The notes under the pieces are model-generated. The model was given only the letters and a program-made list of their open reading frames with translations, did no database searches and was not told the origin of the DNA. DNA of 6,008 bases from a virus. Lineage: Duplodnaviria > Heunggongvirae > Uroviricota > Caudoviricetes. The position numbers and the translations under genes are program-made. Shown here one piece after another: positions 3-6,008 of the stretch; the stretch's first letter is position 1, and the number at the start of each line of letters is the position of its first letter. The DNA lies in IMG/VR virus record IMGVR_UViG_2541047679_000002, one strand, 5' to 3'.

Positions 3-3000
3 ACTGGTGCATCCATCTGGCTTGCCACGAAAAAAGATAAACGCTTTGACGCTGTGGTTGTCGCTGTATCCGCTAACAACATGGTTCATGTTGTGGAACA
101 ACTGGTAAACATGTACCCGGCGGCAAAAATCACCTGCGCACTGGATAATGACCGGAAATCAGCTACAGAAGGAAAAGGGAATACCGGCCTGCGGACTGGC
201 TATGAAATCTTATCGAAATTCAACGATGTCCGCTGCGTCTATCCAACTTTTGAAGACGATCCGCAAATGGAGTGCAGTGACTTCAACGACCTGCACAAAC
301 TACGTGGACTTCGTGAAACAGCACGTCAACTGTTTGCAACTGCAAACCGCCTGAAAACTGGCACTGATTTGCTATCTCTGACGCTCAACCGCCTGAAGAC
401 AATTAAGCGGGATAACCGTCGTACTTTTGCCAAAGAGCTGCTGAGAGCGGTGGATATTGGCATGCTAACCTGTCCGGTTCCTAACAGTCCGTCAGACTTA
501 TTTAACATGTTCTGCATCGTTCTGCGTGAAATGGGGCTGGAAAATATCTATCGCGCTACGGTAAAAGACCACATTGCCCGTCGCCTGAATAAAAAGTGCC
601 GTATTGCCCAGGCTCCGCGCTCATTCAGCGAACGCATAACTGATCCCAATAAACGTCCTCAACATATCACCTATAAGCGTTTTGAAACTTCGGTAATGAC
701 CGATGACGTCCTGAAGTACGTGCAATCACTACAGGGGATAGTCATCGTCCGTGCTGGTATGGGTTCCGGCAAATCTACTGGATTGTTACGACCGTTAATG
801 CATAGCTCAGAACGTGGTATCTCTGTTGCTCACCGTGTCTCCCTTATTGGTGGCCTGTGGGAAATGATGACAGAAGGAAAAGGTGTAAAAGCCGATATCC
901 TGCACTATCAGGACCCTGGCTATCAGGAAATGGCTCCATACGCCAGTAAACTGACCATCTGCATAAACTCGATTGTTAAAAACTGCTGGCAACCGTTGAT
1001 GCGCCAGCACGACTATTTTGGCTTTGACGAGGCCACACAAGGGCTACGTGCCGTTCTTTCCGGTCGGGCTATGGAAAACCCGGTGGCTGTATTCCATACG
1101 CTAATTGACGCGCTGGCCAGAACGGAACAACACCCAATCATGGTGGATGCTGATGCGAACGATCTGCTGGTTGACCTGGCTGAACTGGCTATGAAACGCC
1201 GTGAAGAACTAGGTTTACCGGCATGGCTGCAGATCCACGTAATTGAATTACCTGTTGATGTTCGCAACCGCGAAACAGGTGAGCCAATCCGGGTTTTTTA
1301 TACAGAAAAAGATCGCATTATGACCGAGGTGGTGAAAGCTGTATCGGATGGCGAAAAAATCATGTTGGCCACCGACAGCTCCACCTTTGCAGAAGATGTG
1401 ACAGCCACCCTGAGAATGCATTTTCCTGGTAAGAAATTTCTGTGTGTAAACCAGAAAAGTAAACAGGATGAAGAAGTCGATGCCTTTACCAACCAGCCAA
1501 AAGTAATGGTGATGAAATACGATGGACTGATCTACAGTCCGTCAATTTCCTCCGGGGTGTCATTTGAGAAAAAACATTTTGACCGTCATTTCGGCATGTT
1601 CTGCGGTGAAGTTGTGCCCAGCGACGCAGTGCAAATGCTACGCCGCGACCGTACAGCAAAAGAATTTATTATCGGCTTTGATAAAGCTCGTGCAAAACGC
1701 GAGACTGATCCGCAAAAAATAGAACGTGCATTCGCCCAGGCATTACTTGCTACCGCAGGCATGAACGGTGAACTGACGGATGTCGTTTTCGATGGCGACC
1801 GTATATCAATGGGGGTGGCCAATACCGACTTTACCAGGATGAAAATTAAAGCTGCCGCAATTGAAGCGTCTGCGCGTAACGACTACGCCAGCAACATGAT
1901 CTGCATCATGCACAGCGACGGTTATAAGGTATCGCCATTAGCTACCGATTATGCCGCGAATGATTTTGGTAAAGAGCTGCGCAAAGAAGCGCGGGATATT
2001 GTGTGGGAACAGACGCTGGATCTGCACCTCAATACAGAGACACCAGAAGAATCAGAGCGTGAAGAACTGCTAAAAAAACGTGCGCTAACGCTTGAAGAAC
2101 AGGCAAAACTGGTCCGCTGGGATATTGAGAACGAACTGAAATTACCGGTTGAAGAAGGCTCGCTGAAATTCTATTTCGATGGCGCTCGAGACAAAATTCG
2201 CCGTTATGAAACGATGCTGCTTGATGAAGTCACAGCCCGTCGTTATGACCGTGAAGAAGCGGCTATCAATTTTACATACGCGTACCGCCAGACCGGACAG
2301 TGGCAATATTTTGTGGTGACCGCGATGACGCGCGAGCAGGCTGATGATGTATTCAAAGCGAAATTTCCAGGAATAATCGACTACAAGGTAAAAGCTACCC
2401 CTGCTGTTGAGGTCGGCATGCGCGGATTCTATGCGCTTAAATCAGCGACTCTCCGGCAGTACTTTATCGACTGCGGTATCGACCCTGAAACTATGACCGG
2501 CGAAGCGACGCAGGAACGTCTCAAGTTCGCTAGAGACAACCTAATGACAGCAGAACGCCGTGATATGTTGAATAACGTTCTGCACATTGGTGGCTTTATG
2601 ACACCAAAAGGGAAGCCTAAAGTGCCGGAAGCACTGTTTAAAAACATCTGCGACTCTCTCGGCCTAAAAACAGGAAAACGTCGCGGCAGAGATGGCGATA
2701 AGCGCCCGACATTGCGTTTTGTTGAGCCTGAGTCTGTAGCATTTATACTTGATATTCTTGCGCAACGTCAGGAGGACGGTATGACGTTGAAAGCTCGCAA
2801 GGCGGAAAAATCAACGACCGAAGTGGATCGCGATTTGTCATTAAATATATATATGAATGGTGAAACGCGATCCACAAACACGGTGGAACAGGATTCCCCT
2901 CGTTCAGCTATATCACAGGCTTTGGCCGTATTGCCGGTGGCTGTTCCTGAGTCCTGGGCGATGAGTGCTCTGCCATCAGCTGAACTGGAATCTATCAGGG

Positions 3001-3143
3001 GGTGGTCAGTTGACAGCATCGCATACACGTTTGCAGCCCTTTATATGACTGAGTTTATGGATTTGCTGTCCGGTCATGAGATTAAGTTGCTGAAGGCTTT
3101 TATAGGCCCACGACATGCCAGCGATGAGTTTTGTGTAGTTTAG
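3..3143 (+). CDS. Replication protein, primase/helicase-like (Toprim-like motif plus P-loop NTPase); 5'-partial, continues upstream of the window
   Basis: Continuous ORF (track 54..3143, 1029 codons) whose frame stays open back to nt 3 with no stop, so the true start is upstream. Motifs read directly: DND at nt 144-152 within KITCALDNDRK (Toprim-like DxD); Walker A GMGSGKST at nt 756-779; Walker-B-like FGFDE at nt 1017-1031. Stop TAG at 3141-3143. Domain calls are from motif recognition only. Confidence 0.78.
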   Translation, partial: TGASIWLATKKDKRFDAVVVAVSANNMVHVVEQLVNMYPAAKITCALDNDRKSATEGKGNTGLRTGYEILSKFNDVRCVYPTFEDDPQMECSDFNDLHKLRGLRETARQLFATANRLKTGTDLLSLTLNRLKTIKRDNRRTFAKELLRAVDIGMLTCPVPNSPSDLFNMFCIVLREMGLENIYRATVKDHIARRLNKKCRIAQAPRSFSERITDPNKRPQHITYKRFETSVMTDDVLKYVQSLQGIVIVRAGMGSGKSTGLLRPLMHSSERGISVAHRVSLIGGLWEMMTEGKGVKADILHYQDPGYQEMAPYASKLTICINSIVKNCWQPLMRQHDYFGFDEATQGLRAVLSGRAMENPVAVFHTLIDALARTEQHPIMVDADANDLLVDLAELAMKRREELGLPAWLQIHVIELPVDVRNRETGEPIRVFYTEKDRIMTEVVKAVSDGEKIMLATDSSTFAEDVTATLRMHFPGKKFLCVNQKSKQDEEVDAFTNQPKVMVMKYDGLIYSPSISSGVSFEKKHFDRHFGMFCGEVVPSDAVQMLRRDRTAKEFIIGFDKARAKRETDPQKIERAFAQALLATAGMNGELTDVVFDGDRISMGVANTDFTRMKIKAAAIEASARNDYASNMICIMHSDGYKVSPLATDYAANDFGKELRKEARDIVWEQTLDLHLNTETPEESEREELLKKRALTLEEQAKLVRWDIENELKLPVEEGSLKFYFDGARDKIRRYETMLLDEVTARRYDREEAAINFTYAYRQTGQWQYFVVTAMTREQADDVFKAKFPGIIDYKVKATPAVEVGMRGFYALKSATLRQYFIDCGIDPETMTGEATQERLKFARDNLMTAERRDMLNNVLHIGGFMTPKGKPKVPEALFKNICDSLGLKTGKRRGRDGDKRPTLRFVEPESVAFILDILAQRQEDGMTLKARKAEKSTTEVDRDLSLNIYMNGETRSTNTVEQDSPRSAISQALAVLPVAVPESWAMSALPSAELESIRGWSVDSIAYTFAALYMTEFMDLLSGHEIKLLKAFIGPRHASDEFCVV

Positions 3144-3160: not shown

Positions 3161-3427
3161 ATGATGCAAGAGTGCCTCGTTTTGATTGAAGGGTATGATC
3201 CGTATGTTGTTAACGTCAGTAGAATGGATACTGGCTATAGCGACTACAAAACTGGTCGTGAACTGCCGTTCACCATCATCAGGATGAATAGCTTTGGCGA
3301 TGATGATGCTGTTTATTGCTGTATAGCCAGCGATAAAAACATGGAAGACCGGACAGATGAAGCCCGTATGCTATTGAGGAAATATAAGGTAAAGCCGTTA
3401 TCAGAGAATAACGCTGAGAGGGGTTAA
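3161..3427 (+). CDS. Hypothetical small acidic protein (about 88 aa), first gene of an AT-rich three-gene cassette
   Basis: ORF in track (3131..3427). ATG at 3161 is preferred over the TTG at 3131 and GTG at 3155; purine-rich GAGGGTAGAAG lies upstream. It begins 18 nt after the replication gene stop. Stop TAA at 3425-3427. No recognisable family; start codon uncertain. Confidence 0.5.
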   Translation: MMQECLVLIEGYDPYVVNVSRMDTGYSDYKTGRELPFTIIRMNSFGDDDAVYCCIASDKNMEDRTDEARMLLRKYKVKPLSENNAERG

Positions 3428-3429
3428 AA

Positions 3430-3825
3430 ATGGCAGTTCAATCATACAAATACGAATCCCCTTTGGATAAGGGATACATTCGTATCAAGTTAAGTCGTTC
3501 TCAGCATAAGGCTATTTTTAAGGTAAGGAAAATTCGCATATTGGATGCGTATGCGTATTACTACAACGGTGAAAATGTTGTTGTTGAACACTTTCTTGCA
3601 CGATGGTTTGTAGCTCTGATTTTTGTCCCTCTCCTGTTAATTGGTACTTTTGTGGATGGTTTTCCTAGTACATGGCGGGAGATAAAGAAAGGCTTATTCC
3701 CGCGTAAGTACGGCAGATTTTCGCAAGATAGCTGGCGAGTTATACCGGGTAAACATTCTGTGGATGAGCAACCGATTGTTGATTACTGGTTGAAGCGTAT
3801 GGCTGATGCTAAAAAAGTTGATTGA
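3430..3825 (+). CDS. Hypothetical membrane protein (131 aa) with one predicted transmembrane helix
   Basis: ATG at 3430 preceded by strong SD GAGAGGGG (3416-3423, 6-nt spacer), 2 nt after the upstream stop. Hydrophobic segment WFVALIFVPLLLIGTFV, basic flanks. About 38% GC by hand count over 3430-3489. Confidence 0.65.
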   Translation: MAVQSYKYESPLDKGYIRIKLSRSQHKAIFKVRKIRILDAYAYYYNGENVVVEHFLARWFVALIFVPLLLIGTFVDGFPSTWREIKKGLFPRKYGRFSQDSWRVIPGKHSVDEQPIVDYWLKRMADAKKVD

Positions 3826-3843
3826 GTTGTGGAAGGAGTATTT

Positions 3844-4068
3844 ATGAACTGTAACAAAAATGAAGAAACTCGCCTGGTTTGGACGGTAGTAATCGGAGAT
3901 AAAAAGGGCGGTGAAGAGCCTCATTTTGATTATTCTGTGGCTTTGCAGGCTCTCATCCTTGAAGCTCAGATATACCAACAAGAGATGCAGAAGAACCCTC
4001 AATTGGAACCTCTACCAATTGGCCTATTTTGCGAGCGAGTATCAGCGGCGGAACTCCCTGATATCTGA
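3844..4068 (+). CDS. Hypothetical small protein (74 aa)
   Basis: ATG at 3844 preceded by strong SD GGAAGGAG (3831-3838, 5-nt spacer); track ORF 3829..4068 starts at an upstream GTG. Stop TGA at 4066-4068. No recognisable family. Confidence 0.58.
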   Translation: MNCNKNEETRLVWTVVIGDKKGGEEPHFDYSVALQALILEAQIYQQEMQKNPQLEPLPIGLFCERVSAAELPDI

Positions 4069-4081
4069 TGCCCTCCAACAG

Positions 4082-4100
4082 CTGATCAGGTTCTGATCAG
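4082..4100. promoter_or_regulatory. Two copies of the palindromic octamer CTGATCAG separated by 3 bp, each containing a Dam GATC site; candidate operator or weak hairpin
   Basis: CTGATCAG at 4082-4089 and 4093-4100; the octamer is its own reverse complement; GATC at 4084-4087 and 4095-4098. Lies 14 nt after the stop of the 3844-4068 ORF. Confidence 0.3.
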
Positions 4101-4129
4101 TTAGTAAAGCAAACTATAAAAACACCTGT

Positions 4130-4149
4130 CCCCGTGACTGGTCACGGGG
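4130..4149. promoter_or_regulatory. Perfect 9-bp inverted repeat CCCCGTGAC-TG-GTCACGGGG; candidate protein-binding palindrome or hairpin
   Basis: Left arm 4130-4138 and right arm 4141-4149 are exact reverse complements. Not followed by a T-run on the + strand, so not a canonical intrinsic terminator; on the minus strand a T5 run starts 6 nt after the stem. Confidence 0.3.
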
Positions 4150-4169
4150 TAAAATGTCTTTGCAAATTA

Positions 4170-4199
4170 TTGACGTGTGCGTCGTTTTGACGGTAAAGT
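4170..4199 (+). promoter_or_regulatory. Candidate sigma70-type promoter TTGACG-N18-TAAAGT
   Basis: TTGACG at 4170-4175 and TAAAGT at 4194-4199 (18-bp spacer); predicted start near 4207. Hexamer match only. Confidence 0.3.
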
Positions 4200-4206
4200 T
4201 ACTCCG

Positions 4207-4282
4207 CTGCGGTAAATCCCGCAGTCGGGACTCTCAACCCCGAAATCCGAACGACGCACAACACGCGCCAGCGTGTTTTTTT
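4207..4282 (+). ncRNA. Candidate small terminated transcript (about 76 nt): sRNA or leader/attenuator
   Basis: Bounded by the candidate promoter and the intrinsic terminator. Contains hairpin CTGCGG/CCGCAG (4206-4211 / 4219-4224) and a second possible stem CGGG/CCCG whose loop carries ACTCTCAAC (4230-4238). The overlapping track ORF 4154..4369 runs through the terminator and is unlikely to be coding. Confidence 0.3.
4260..4282 (+). terminator. Rho-independent terminator
   Basis: Stem ACACGC (4261-4266), loop GCCA, stem GCGTGT (4271-4276), followed directly by a run of T ending at 4282. Confidence 0.6.
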
Positions 4283-4364
4283 GTGTGTATAAGCCTGCGC
4301 ATATCCGAATTATGGTGGCTCAGGCGGGGCAGCCGAAAGGCTGGCCGGTGTCGTTTGGGCCGGT

Positions 4365-4420
4365 GTTGAGAACCCCGCTTGGGCTACCACCCTATAGAGA
4401 TTCTCAACTCTGGTGGTAGC
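4365..4420 (+). promoter_or_regulatory. Interleaved complementary boxes in the icd-like leader; candidate antisense-RNA/target pairs (P1 c4-type) or RNA pseudoknot
   Basis: GTTGAGAA (4365-4372) is the exact reverse complement of TTCTCAAC (4401-4408); GCTACCACC (4383-4391) is the exact reverse complement of GGTGGTAGC (4412-4420). Order is A, B, A', B' (crossing), ending 29 nt upstream of the icd-like ATG. Confidence 0.4.
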
Positions 4421-4448
4421 ACTGTTCTTCCAAACAAGAGTGCATACC

Positions 4449-4613
4449 ATGTTCAAATTCAAATTTGCGGCAGTCGTTCGCACAGACAAAAAGTCACACA
4501 TCCATCATCTTTCCACTATCGCGTCATCTGAACGGGAAGCTCGTCGCCAGTTCGCCAGCCGGTTTGTCCTGGTATTGTCTGCCCGTATTCCGGTGCGCGA
4601 GGTGGCTGCATGA
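4449..4613 (+). CDS. icd: Icd-like protein (host cell division inhibitor Icd family), 54 aa
   Basis: ATG at 4449 with weak SD AAGAG upstream. Translation MFKFKFAAVVRTDKKSHIHHLSTIASSEREARRQFASRFVLVLSARIPVREVAA shows the SEREAR and AR(I/L)PV pattern I recall for Icd-like proteins of enterobacterial prophages. Track ORF 4413..4613 starts at an upstream GTG lacking an SD. Confidence 0.7.
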   Translation: MFKFKFAAVVRTDKKSHIHHLSTIASSEREARRQFASRFVLVLSARIPVREVAA

Positions 4614-4843
4614 ATCAGGTAAAAATGAACACTGTTGGCCTGCTGGAATCGTTGGATGAACGTCTGGCTCAGGTCTATGCGCTTGTGTCATCAGCCCATC
4701 GTACAGTCTCCAGTTGTGAGGCGTCGATTTATCTCTCAGAAGCCGGGAAGCTCCTTCAAATCGCGTGTGAGTTGACACACGAAGCACAGGGGTATTCAGC
4801 ATCTCTCTCGTCGCAATTGCAGCACAATAAGGAGGCCAAATGA
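4610..4843 (+). CDS. Hypothetical protein (77 aa), translationally coupled between icd-like and antirepressor genes
   Basis: ATG at 4610 overlaps the icd-like stop (ATGA, 4610-4613); its own stop overlaps the next start (ATGA, 4840-4843). Predicted helical, no recognisable family; an internal ATG at 4625 is an alternative start. Confidence 0.55.
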   Translation: MNQVKMNTVGLLESLDERLAQVYALVSSAHRTVSSCEASIYLSEAGKLLQIACELTHEAQGYSASLSSQLQHNKEAK

Positions 4844-5616
4844 GCGCGTTAGCTGTATTTTCGTTTCAGGAAGAGCATCAGGTTCGTGTAGTGATGATTA
4901 ACGGTGAGCCGTGGTTTGTTGCATCTGATGTGTGTATGGCGGCGGGTATTGATTCTACGGCCATTAGAAAGTTGGATGAGGACGAAAAGGGTCTGCATTT
5001 AATGCAGACCCCTGGCGGATACCAGAATGTTTCAATCATCAACGAGTCAGGTCTATACACCCTGATCCTCCGCTGCCGTGACGCGGTGAAGCAAGGCACA
5101 ACAGCTTGGCGGTTTCGCAAATGGGTAACGAACGAAGTCTTGCCCTCTATTCGCAAAAATGGAGAGTACGTTTACATCGAGCCTGAGCCAATGCGAGCAG
5201 CGGAGCCGTTGAACGGGAGGCAGAAAGCGTATCTGCGAGGGCTGATTAACGATATAGCACAAAGTTTTCGGTGCCGAAATGCCTGGATCAGTGGAATATG
5301 GTTGGCTTTGCGTCGGGCGTGTCGTAATCCATCCCCGAACCCCATAACGGTTGATGATTTGCCAGCAATTGCGGCAGAACTGCGCAGGATTTTGACGGCT
5401 GCTGAGTCGGCATTGAGGAACATGCGCACGTATGAACGGGAGTTGTTGCGTGATGTTGTTCGTGGGGGTAGGCGGAGTATGTCGTGTGGTGATTTGCCCA
5501 TCATCGATATCAACTCTGATCTGGAAAAGGCGTTACCCGCACATTTTGAACTGGCAGTTCAAAAACTTGAGCAGTTATCCGCGCAGTTAAAGCCAGCAGA
5601 AATCACTAATAAATAG
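4840..5616 (+). CDS. Bro-N domain antirepressor-like protein (258 aa)
   Basis: Strong SD AAGGAGG (4829-4835) 4 nt before ATG 4840. N-terminal about 110 aa match the Bro-N pattern (FSFQ...GEPWFVASDVC...LDEDEKG...GGYQ...INESGLYTLILR...WVTNEVLPSIRKNGEY). C-terminal about 140 aa not recognised. Stop TAG at 5614-5616. Confidence 0.85.
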   Translation: MSALAVFSFQEEHQVRVVMINGEPWFVASDVCMAAGIDSTAIRKLDEDEKGLHLMQTPGGYQNVSIINESGLYTLILRCRDAVKQGTTAWRFRKWVTNEVLPSIRKNGEYVYIEPEPMRAAEPLNGRQKAYLRGLINDIAQSFRCRNAWISGIWLALRRACRNPSPNPITVDDLPAIAAELRRILTAAESALRNMRTYERELLRDVVRGGRRSMSCGDLPIIDINSDLEKALPAHFELAVQKLEQLSAQLKPAEITNK

Positions 5617-5752: not shown

Positions 5753-5777
5753 AAGGCACCGATTAATTCGGTGCCTT
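5753..5777. terminator. Candidate bidirectional terminator hairpin between convergent genes
   Basis: 10-bp perfect stem AAGGCACCGA (5753-5762) / TCGGTGCCTT (5768-5777) with loop TTAAT. Only short T-runs on either side. Sits 137 nt after the Bro-N stop and 11 nt after the minus-strand gene stop. Confidence 0.45.
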
Positions 5778-5788
5778 TAACGTATGCT

Positions 5789-6008
5789 TTAGCCGAAATA
5801 TGTCAGCCATGCTAACTGCATTGCTGACATGGGGCTGTTTGCACTGCCTGACCACGCATAATTCTGGCCATTATAATGAAACTCAACAACGTATGAGCCA
5901 TCACCAATATTTCTCACAGGCTTAAATACCGGCTTAGATACAGGTGAAGAAGGCGCGGGCGGTTGCTGTTCTTCTACGCTCTCTTCCTCTTCCTCTTCCT
6001 CTTCCTCT
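5789..6008 (-). CDS. Hypothetical protein, 3'-terminal part only (gene start lies beyond the right window edge); poly-Glu tract, Pro-rich linker, small C-terminal domain
   Basis: Hand translation of the reverse complement from nt 6007 gives 72 sense codons with no stop: EEEEEEEEESVEEQQPPAPSSPVSKPVFKPVRNIGDGSYVVEFHYNGQNYAWSGSANSPMSAMQLAWLTYFG, ending at TAA (complement of 5789-5791). Not in the ORF track because it has no start in the window. Confidence 0.55.
   Translation of the reverse strand, partial: EEEEEEEEESVEEQQPPAPSSPVSKPVFKPVRNIGDGSYVVEFHYNGQNYAWSGSANSPMSAMQLAWLTYFG
5981..6008. repeat. Hexanucleotide tandem repeat (CTCTTC)n, at least 4.7 copies, running off the window edge
   Basis: CTCTTC repeated from 5981 to the end of the window; on the minus strand this reads (GAAGAG)n = Glu-Glu repeats inside the partial CDS. 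Confidence 0.85.

Follow-up and report, generated by a model that had tools for sequence, protein, structure and literature searches.

The closest known relatives of the locus presented here are the leader and antisense RNAs of P4, N15, P1 and Gifsy-1. In P4, the intrinsic terminator t1 reportedly works more efficiently in the presence of the CI RNA together with seqA, and does so even in vitro (a finding ascribed to Briani and colleagues, 2000); t1 also serves the autoregulation of CI. The CA RNA of N15, which is processed from the leader transcript, is reportedly needed for premature termination of the transcript that starts at Pa (a finding ascribed to Ravin and colleagues, 1999), and the c4 RNA of P1 is known, from Citron and Schuster, to act by blocking the translation of icd. 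IsrK-like RNAs have been equated with P4 seqA and C4-like RNAs with P4 CI, with the N15 system being structurally similar (Barquist 2013, PMC3632133). In Gifsy-1, a part of the IsrK transcripts escapes termination and extends into the antirepressor operon, and STnc1160, the homologue of C4, relies on the isrK promoter (Hershko-Shalev 2016, PMC4825925).

The locus considered here comprises a promoter, a leader of the IsrK / P4 seqA-t1 class and the intrinsic terminator of an N15-like antirepressor operon, and very probably these elements act together as an antisense-responsive attenuator. They lie in a 6,008-nt stretch of viral DNA (henceforth the window) that, judged by its sequence, derives from an N15-like linear telomere phage-plasmid, a replicon with protelomerase, SopAB and RepA; the long ORF at 54-3143 corresponds to the 3' portion of the gene for RepA. 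When the region 4100-4650 was compared with 5426 complete E. coli genomes, it matched plasmids only (in 18 genomes), the best match (98%) being a 46.7-kb linear plasmid that carries a protelomerase, SopAB and a CyRepA1 replication protein. In the phage collection, the identity was 98% to phage YDC107_1, ~80% to N15 and the Klebsiella telomere phages, and 75% to phiKO2. The aligned region of N15 is the immA secondary immunity (anti-immunity) locus. The elements recognised in the window are the following.

4170..4199, + strand: predicted sigma-70-type promoter, equivalent to N15 Pa (9/12 match and conservation)
4206..4281, + strand: IsrK-family leader RNA, a predicted short transcript of ~76 nt (Rfam RF01394, our own covariance model and fold)
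4206..4225, + strand: SL1, a hairpin of 6-7 bp with the loop UAAAUC (fold and changes on both sides)
4226..4242, + strand: SL2, a CGGG/CCCG stem presenting box a1 in its loop (fold, duplex and co-variation)
4246..4257, + strand: b1, the single-stranded spacer UCCGAACGACGC, predicted target of the b' hairpin loop (duplex and co-variation)
4260..4283, + strand: intrinsic terminator with the stem 4260-4266/4271-4277, the loop GCCA and a U run at 4276-4282 (scan, fold and conservation)
4308..4394, + strand: C4-family antisense RNA, homologue of N15 CA, P1 c4 and P4 CI (Rfam RF01695)
4396..4440, + strand: predicted downstream mRNA targets a2 and b2 (duplexes, co-variation and P1-like layout)
4449..5616, + strand: controlled operon of icd (4449-4613), antA (4610-4843) and antB (4840-5616) (N15 protein identity and Bro-N)

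The names of the a and b boxes follow the P1 record. The operon is defined by the identity of its products to those of N15 (94% for Icd, 63% for AntA, which is gp31 in N15, and 71% for AntB, gp30) and by the Bro-N domain in the antB product (Pfam, 6.2e-19); the notes in the phiKO2 record call its operon products Icd, AntA and AntB as well. A terminator is marked at the aligned spot both in N15, as a 'putative rho-indep. transcription terminator', and in phiKO2, simply as 'terminator'.

When the whole window was scanned against Rfam, three matches were obtained, all on the + strand: isrK (RF01394) at 4206-4281, which spans the full model (1-77) with an E value of 5.5e-10 and 54.7 bits, just 4.7 bits above the cut-off of 50; c4-a1b1 (RF03163) at 4193-4246, with 30.4 bits under a cut-off of 46.7; and the C4 antisense RNA (RF01695) at 4308-4394, with 73.8 bits against a cut-off of 45 and an E value of 1.5e-13. 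With 49.1 bits, a relative that is 98% identical and has a shorter U run falls slightly under the isrK cut-off. No tRNA or tmRNA was found in the window by ARAGORN. The surroundings are those of an isrK element too, given that a C4-family RNA follows directly downstream on the same strand and is itself followed by a Bro-N/antirepressor operon. By score, by architecture and by context, 4206-4281 is thus an IsrK-family leader. As to c4-a1b1, the score falls short, yet the two boxes complementary to the adjacent C4 RNA are there, and several relatives do pass the cut-off, e.g. Klebsiella phage 020009 at 52.2 bits. The tandem arrangement of isrK and then C4 recurred in each of the 17 further phages and plasmids that were checked with both ends available; it was found in N15, phiKO2, PY54, six Klebsiella telomere phages, APSE-3, P4, P1, four lambdoid/Stx phages and one Aeromonas telomere phage.

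Could the unit itself be a c4-like antisense repressor? Its length of ~76 nt, taken alone, does recall the 77-nt c4 RNA of P1, a likeness to which the initial annotation of this DNA had drawn attention. In the Rfam scan of the window, however, the C4 covariance model, which describes a long tRNA-like stem enclosing two hairpins together with the antisense boxes, gave no match on 4206-4281 and fell on 4308-4394; the unit holds the sense-strand targets a1 and b1 and is devoid of antisense boxes; and the P1 record designates the equivalent stretch as the target sites a1/b1. We regard this identity as extremely improbable, refuted as it is by the position of the C4 match, and the likeness in size as a coincidence, the c4 homologue being the next element along the strand. 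That annotation was right about the unit as such but missed its partner, the C4 RNA whose targets the unit carries.

The sequence 4206-4283 folds with -26.8 kcal/mol (z = -3.43), a stability equalled by 0 of 200 shuffles, and the MFE and centroid structures both display SL1, SL2, an unpaired spacer and a terminator with its U run, i.e. the three-hairpin architecture of isrK. The stem of SL1 (4207-4212/4219-4224) comprises 6 bp, to which G4206-U4225 may add one more, and that of SL2 (4226-4229/4239-4242) closes the 9-nt loop ACUCUCAAC at 4230-4238. The terminator, AACACGC-GCCA-GCGUGUU, occupies 4260-4277, its U run comprises seven U (4276-4282), and the 3' end of b1 lies only 3 nt ahead of its stem; in folding of the nascent RNA, the terminator hairpin has a probability of ~1. 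Hence the 6-bp hairpin and the possible second stem-loop that had been proposed from the letters correspond to SL1 and SL2, respectively, both of them in the predicted fold, and the terminator (described as ACACGC-GCCA-GCGTGT plus a T-run) and the promoter-like motif (TTGACG-N18-TAAAGT) that had been proposed along with them are indeed present.

Comparison with relatives bears this architecture out. A covariance model, R1, was built on 13 leaders, then used to align 19, and gives the window leader 87.6 bits. In this 19-leader alignment, which was fitted to the structure and hence favours it, standard pairs occupy 94.9% of the pair cells (shuffles: 84.7%; slid controls: 30-48%), and the structure measures were reached by 0 of 500 shuffles. 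Changes on both sides occur in seven pairs of these 19 sequences; five of them are in SL1, where they affect 5/7 pairs and 96.8% of cells are paired, and the other two are in the terminator stem, where 2/7 pairs show compensatory changes. The columns of SL1 and of the terminator are in register already in a plain MAFFT alignment.

The unit is overlapped by an ATG-initiated ORF of 71 codons (4154-4369). A reading frame that starts with ATG does therefore exist at this place, but that it codes for a 71-residue protein is hardly believable: stops or frameshifts interrupt the same frame in 11/11 homologues, N15 included, its product has no Pfam match, and the substitutions across the unit track RNA pairing. 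The 98%-identical pPEC1013-3 likewise has a broken ORF, and its U run is shorter by 2 nt. The initial annotation had considered this ORF to be probably spurious and had suggested that conservation of the stem-loops be weighed against that of the frame; the outcome, stems with compensatory changes and a frame broken in all homologues, agrees with that suspicion.

The promoter consists of a -35 element, TTGACG (4170-4175), an 18-nt spacer and a -10 element, TAAAGT (4194-4199), and the motif scan found it to be the sole promoter-like site on the + strand within 3800-4900. In 12/12 homologues the -35 region ATTGACG is unchanged and the -10 is retained as TAnnGT, with spacers of 16-18 nt, whereas the spacer sequence and the flanks, unlike the hexamers, vary. 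The isrK model begins (its position 1) 7 nt past the -10 hexamer, i.e. where transcription is expected to start. Between the terminator and icd the motif scan detected 0 promoter-like sites, and so the C4 RNA as well as icd-antA-antB should depend on read-through.

Two further features of the promoter region deserve mention. A perfect 11-nt inverted repeat joins the promoter spacer (4176-4186) with b1 and its flank (4250-4260); the spacer was considered as a cis partner of b1 and gained no support, since among 12 genomes the own spacer was no better than foreign ones. An operator for the primary repressor (CB-type) was sought near 4100-4210 with the palindrome TTATAGCCAGCTATAA, which was taken from the cro/repressor intergenic region of a 98%-identical plasmid, and no site was found there. 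The sole match to this palindrome, with 2 mismatches, is at 3321-3336.

Could mere chance have brought a terminator-like hairpin together with a promoter-like motif in an intergenic region? Counted by themselves, neither motif class is enriched: the 2 promoter-like motifs compare with 1.0+/-1.1 in shuffles and the 3 terminator-like motifs with 1.2+/-1.3, both within chance. What places the unit beyond chance is not these counts but the family match (E = 5.5e-10) and the comparison with relatives, across 19 sequences of which the hexamers, the stems with their compensatory changes and the U run are kept, and where the unit co-varies with the neighbouring C4 RNA. The comparative data exclude chance co-occurrence, to which we give next to no credence.

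The C4 RNA begins 26 nt downstream of the leader and displays its two boxes in distinct settings, b' as the hairpin loop GUGUCGUUUGGG (4348-4359) and a' as the joint GUUGAGAA (4365-4372). Each finds a predicted partner on either side of the antisense RNA.

a1 with a': the SL2 loop UCUCAAC (4232-4238) and the joint GUUGAGA(A) (4365-4372, of which 4365-4371 pair), + strand, 7 bp, -9.3 kcal/mol
b1 with b': the spacer UCCGAACGACGC (4246-4257) and the hairpin loop GUGUCGUUUGGG (4348-4359), + strand, 12 bp, -19.2 kcal/mol
a2 with a': UUCUCAAC (4401-4408) and the a' joint, + strand, 8 bp, -10.2 kcal/mol
b2 with b': CCAAAC (4430-4435) and the b' loop, + strand, -8.5 kcal/mol

Of the two downstream boxes, a2 sits in the loop of a hairpin (4396-4411) and b2 abuts the Shine-Dalgarno sequence of icd (AAGAG, 4436-4440), the start of which is 55 nt beyond the C4 RNA. 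Both of them co-vary with the C4 boxes. Averaged over 12 genomes, the own and the non-own duplexes amount to -9.2 versus -3.3 kcal/mol for a'-a1, -9.2 versus -3.4 for a'-a2, -14.9 versus -8.6 for b'-b1 and -10.9 versus -6.9 for b'-b2. With the entire leader paired to the C4 RNA, the means in 16 genomes are -35.1 kcal/mol for own and -21.5 for non-own partners, and the own partner is the best one in 14/16.

The SL2 loop and the C4 box co-vary in 5-6 specificity classes: the window and N15 share the a-type GUUGAGA, PhiR46_1 and Kpn74 have UUGCGAA, phage 020009 has GUUCCAA, KpLi5, phiKO2 and PY54 have UUCCUAC, NAR688 and P4 have UUCUCAC, and APSE-3 has AUGCGAA. The complement of each a-type appears in the SL2 loop and in the downstream hairpin loop alike, and it is this three-way co-variation that constitutes the strongest evidence that the SL2 loop would make a real RNA-RNA contact. 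The window pairs the a-type of N15 with the b-type of the Klebsiella telomere phages, which suggests that the two specificity boxes may both be exchanged independently between phages.

How might these parts work together? Transcription would begin near 4206, and the nascent RNA would fold SL1, then SL2 with a1 in its loop, would next expose the single-stranded b1 and would form the terminator hairpin last. Most polymerases would halt at the U run and release an RNA of ~76 nt with its end at 4278-4283, and the fraction reading through would go on to the C4-type RNA (4308-4394) and then to icd-antA-antB. The C4-type RNA is presumably cut out by RNase P and trimmed at its 3' end, as are P1 c4 and P4 CI, and the mature antisense RNA could use its b' loop together with the a' joint to pair with the two sets of targets. 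Its pairing with a1/b1 on new leaders would, by analogy with P4 t1 and N15, lead to more termination and thereby to autoregulation of its own synthesis, and its pairing with a2/b2 beside the icd ribosome-binding site would keep the antirepressor off.

Family membership, the architecture, the orthology to N15 immA and the co-varying base-pairing are thus shown by the sequences themselves; the transcript ends, the processing and the direction of the regulatory effect are inferred, the last by analogy with P4 and N15. No antiterminator fold was found in nascent RNA that began at 4206, 4176, 4154 or 4100 and ran to 4277, be a1/b1 free or blocked, and the terminator hairpin retained its probability of ~1 with or without a1/b1 blocked, so that folding offers no simple structural switch, and secondary structure alone does not explain how an antisense RNA would raise termination. 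Moreover, the gap of 3 nt between b1 and the terminator stem would leave a very short kinetic window for an RNA acting in trans unless the polymerase pauses. The attenuator reading corresponds to P4 t1 and N15 Ta, and the two functions that the initial annotation had offered, an attenuator or a trans-acting sRNA, each have a counterpart among the homologous elements, the former in P4 t1/N15 Ta and the latter in Gifsy-1 IsrK.

The second of these functions leads to a decoy or activator role. Like IsrK, the ~76-nt RNA might titrate the C4/CA RNA away from a2/b2 and so turn on the translation of icd-antA-antB, by pairing in trans with a'/b' of either the C4/CA RNA or the read-through transcript; this would be compatible with attenuation, and we consider it a possibility to be taken seriously, though one that falls short of being probable. 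In Gifsy-1, short IsrK supplied in trans boosts the translation of the downstream antirepressor >100-fold by pairing at the STnc1160 region (PMC4825925). In the window, the leader outbinds the mRNA target at the antisense boxes (-19.2 and -9.3 kcal/mol for the leader, against -8.5 and -10.2 for the mRNA), its duplex with the C4 RNA is, at -40.7 kcal/mol, the strongest among the 16 genomes, and the MFE structure of the read-through RNA 4206-4470 (-110.8 kcal/mol, z -5.2) pairs a1/b1 with a'/b' in cis, much like 'structure A' of Gifsy-1. By contrast, cofolding of the structured leader with the C4 RNA yields a gain of only -3 kcal/mol over the monomers (loop-loop initiation lies outside this model), and the small ORF that is regulated in Gifsy-1 overlaps the C4 homologue, whereas icd lies 55 nt past it here. 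With icd outside the C4 RNA and provided with a2/b2 sites of its own, the translational switch cannot be identical in detail to that of Gifsy-1. The mature-like C4 RNA cofolded with its downstream target gained 0 in the same kind of model, with loop-loop initiation again outside it.

One may go a step further and imagine that the terminated leader serves, in this lineage, above all as a decoy devoted to the CA/C4 RNA, which it would bind ~10 kcal/mol better than does the mRNA target. The ratio of the short RNA to CA RNA, set by the read-through of a single terminator, would then make up a bistable antirepressor switch, and the independently swapped boxes would give rise to combinatorial immunity types with partial cross-immunity. 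We deem this extended scheme rather unlikely.

What, then, does the proposed antisense-responsive attenuator add to what has been described? The leader is of a known kind, being the orthologue of the N15 leader and belonging to the class of P4 seqA-t1 and Gifsy-1 IsrK, and standard Rfam annotation would label it. The type of element and its logic have already been described for P1, P4, N15 and Gifsy-1, and no new question is opened; only two points are mildly new, the mixture of an N15 a-box with a Klebsiella-phage b-box and the possible decoy role in telomere phages. The leader matters all the same as the gate of the antirepressor operon, which decides the quiescence of the N15-type linear plasmid prophage; in N15-derived vectors, expression of AntA lifts the copy number about ten-fold (PMC2847241). 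Public records set protein CDSs over the leader and the C4 RNA, such as N15 gp32/'cA secondary immunity repressor', 'transcriptional repressor' and 'ash family protein', so that naming both elements as RNAs helps annotation and also disposes of the spurious 71-codon ORF. Finally, co-variation of the boxes offers a simple means of predicting to which immunity class, at the level of RNA, a phage-plasmid of this sort belongs, and such phage-plasmids are frequent in clinical E. coli and Klebsiella.

Set against the known systems one at a time, the locus combines shared and distinct traits. The order of elements is that of the P1/P7 immI region (P51 promoters, a1/b1, c4 RNA, a2/b2 and icd-ant1/2), with the two boxes repeated both upstream and downstream of the antisense RNA, icd as the first gene and the antirepressor next. 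The two Rfam models rank the leaders differently, though, with c4-a1b1 and isrK scoring 30.4 and 54.7 bits in the window and, in reverse, 51.0 and 35.1 in P1, where the hairpin and U run preceding c4 are longer and less terminator-like than those of the window. The P4 leader (PLE promoter, seqA, t1, CI RNA and seqC) matches isrK with 60.8 bits at 8692-8615 (- strand), its CI matches C4 with 74.9, and it likewise has SL1, an SL2 loop box, a spacer box and an intrinsic terminator. In P4, however, the gap between leader and antisense RNA is ~108 nt instead of the 26 nt in the window, further terminators follow downstream of CI, and the genes controlled are those for replication (the alpha operon) rather than an icd-ant operon.

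IsrK of Gifsy-1 is the type member of RF01394, the family matched by the window leader, and there, too, a terminated short RNA and a read-through mRNA come off one promoter, with the C4 homologue STnc1160 and an antirepressor gene downstream (PMC4825925). As in Gifsy-1, the central part of the leader is predicted to pair in cis with the C4 region in the window as well. Hfq binding is a further mark of isrK RNAs, and the window leader carries the U tail of a terminator. The proven role of Gifsy-1 IsrK is the trans-activation of orf45-anrP translation, with orf45 overlapping the C4 homologue (PMC4825925); the window differs in that the C4 RNA ends before icd, the first ORF of the operon, and that a2 and b2 are separate sites.

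The closest counterpart is the immA locus of N15, with Pa, a leader and terminator, the CA RNA and icd-antA-antB (Ravin, Svarchevsky and Deho 1999), to which the locus described here is orthologous, with ~80% DNA identity over 4100-4650. The gene order is the same, from repA and small ORFs through the leader, C4, icd, antA and antB to a convergent protelomerase gene, and the isrK and C4 matches of N15 fall at aligned positions. AntA is just 63% identical between the two, and the b-box differs (GUGUCGUUUGG / CCGAACGAC in the window, CUUCUUGU / ACAAGAAG in N15), whereas the a-box, GUUGAGA/UCUCAAC, is identical in both.

Twenty-six nucleotides past the IsrK-family leader RNA of the phage-plasmid lies a C4-family antisense RNA (Rfam RF01695, 73.8 bits), which is the true homologue of P1 c4, N15 CA and P4 CI. 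Its position is listed below with those of three further elements of the window.

4082-4100: the palindrome CTGATCAG in two copies separated by 3 nt, shortly after the stop codon of ORF 3844-4068
4130-4150: strong hairpin CCCCGUGAC-UGG-GUCACGGGG, some 20 nt ahead of the -35 element of the leader promoter
4308-4394, + strand: C4-family antisense RNA
5757-5777: hairpin GGCACCGA-TTAAT-TCGGTGCC, in the interval that separates antB, ending at 5616, from the convergent protelomerase gene

In the public records of relatives, the region of the C4 RNA is overlaid by protein CDSs, labelled gp32 or 'cA secondary immunity repressor' in N15 and 'transcriptional repressor' or 'ash family protein' elsewhere; in the Klebsiella telomere phage KpLi5, a second 'Icd-like' CDS is annotated over it.

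The a-box of the window (4232-4238 in the leader, with its C4 side within 4348-4372) is identical to that of N15, whereas the b-box (4246-4257, C4 side likewise within 4348-4372) is unlike that of N15 and belongs to the type found in the Klebsiella telomere phages Kpn74, KpLi5 and 020009. This mixed specificity suggests that each box can be exchanged by recombination independently of the other, and that the window's element and N15 would show partial cross-immunity.

In the long stem of the C4 RNA, the 3' strand (GCUACCACC, 4384-4392) is predicted to have an alternative partner in GGUGGUAGC (4412-4420), a pairing that would enclose the hairpin that presents a2, the downstream mRNA target of the antisense RNA, and this helix is present in the minimum free energy structure modelled for the read-through RNA. 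The equivalent helix would join UCACCACC with GGUGGUGA in phiKO2 and would rely on G-U pairing in APSE-3 (the alignment being read by eye), so that the pairing seems to co-vary among relatives. It may represent a precursor conformation that rivals the tRNA-like fold required for processing.

The leader itself varies among close relatives. In the 98%-identical plasmid pPEC1013-3 (8100-8175, aligned with window 4206-4281), the U run consists of 5 U, 2 nt fewer than in the window, and because of this shorter run its isrK score, 49.1, falls below the Rfam cut-off; the Kpn74 counterpart reads UUUUUGUG. Such differences in length may tune read-through. The promoter spacer (4176-4186, TGTGCGTCGTT), which is also similar to the C4 b' loop, forms a perfect inverted repeat of 11 nt with the leader box b1 and its flank (4250-4260, AACGACGCACA). 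Since spacers match their own b1 no better than foreign spacers do, this repeat is probably either vestigial or a side effect of the conserved GUGCG/CGCAC.

Upstream of the leader promoter, each CTGATCAG copy contains a GATC (Dam) site, and the pair could be a protein-binding site. The hairpin at 4130-4150, nested in a longer imperfect inverted repeat (4118-4161), is probably a terminator or insulator for the upstream repA-side operon; it has a poor U run when read on the + strand. Farther upstream, GTATAGCCAGCGATAA (3321-3336, + strand) differs at two positions from the palindrome TTATAGCCAGCTATAA, which occurs repeatedly between the cro and repressor genes of the 98%-identical plasmid. Chance alone would give about 0.03 matches this close, and the site, within ORF 3161-3427, may be an additional operator for the primary repressor.

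At its other end, the window closes with a run of CTCTTC/CTCTTCC repeats (5975-6008), which appear to lie where the protelomerase gene codes for the C-terminal region and, read on the - strand, would encode a Glu-rich tail. At the place equivalent to the hairpin at 5757-5777, phiKO2 carries an annotated 'putative bidirectional' terminator.
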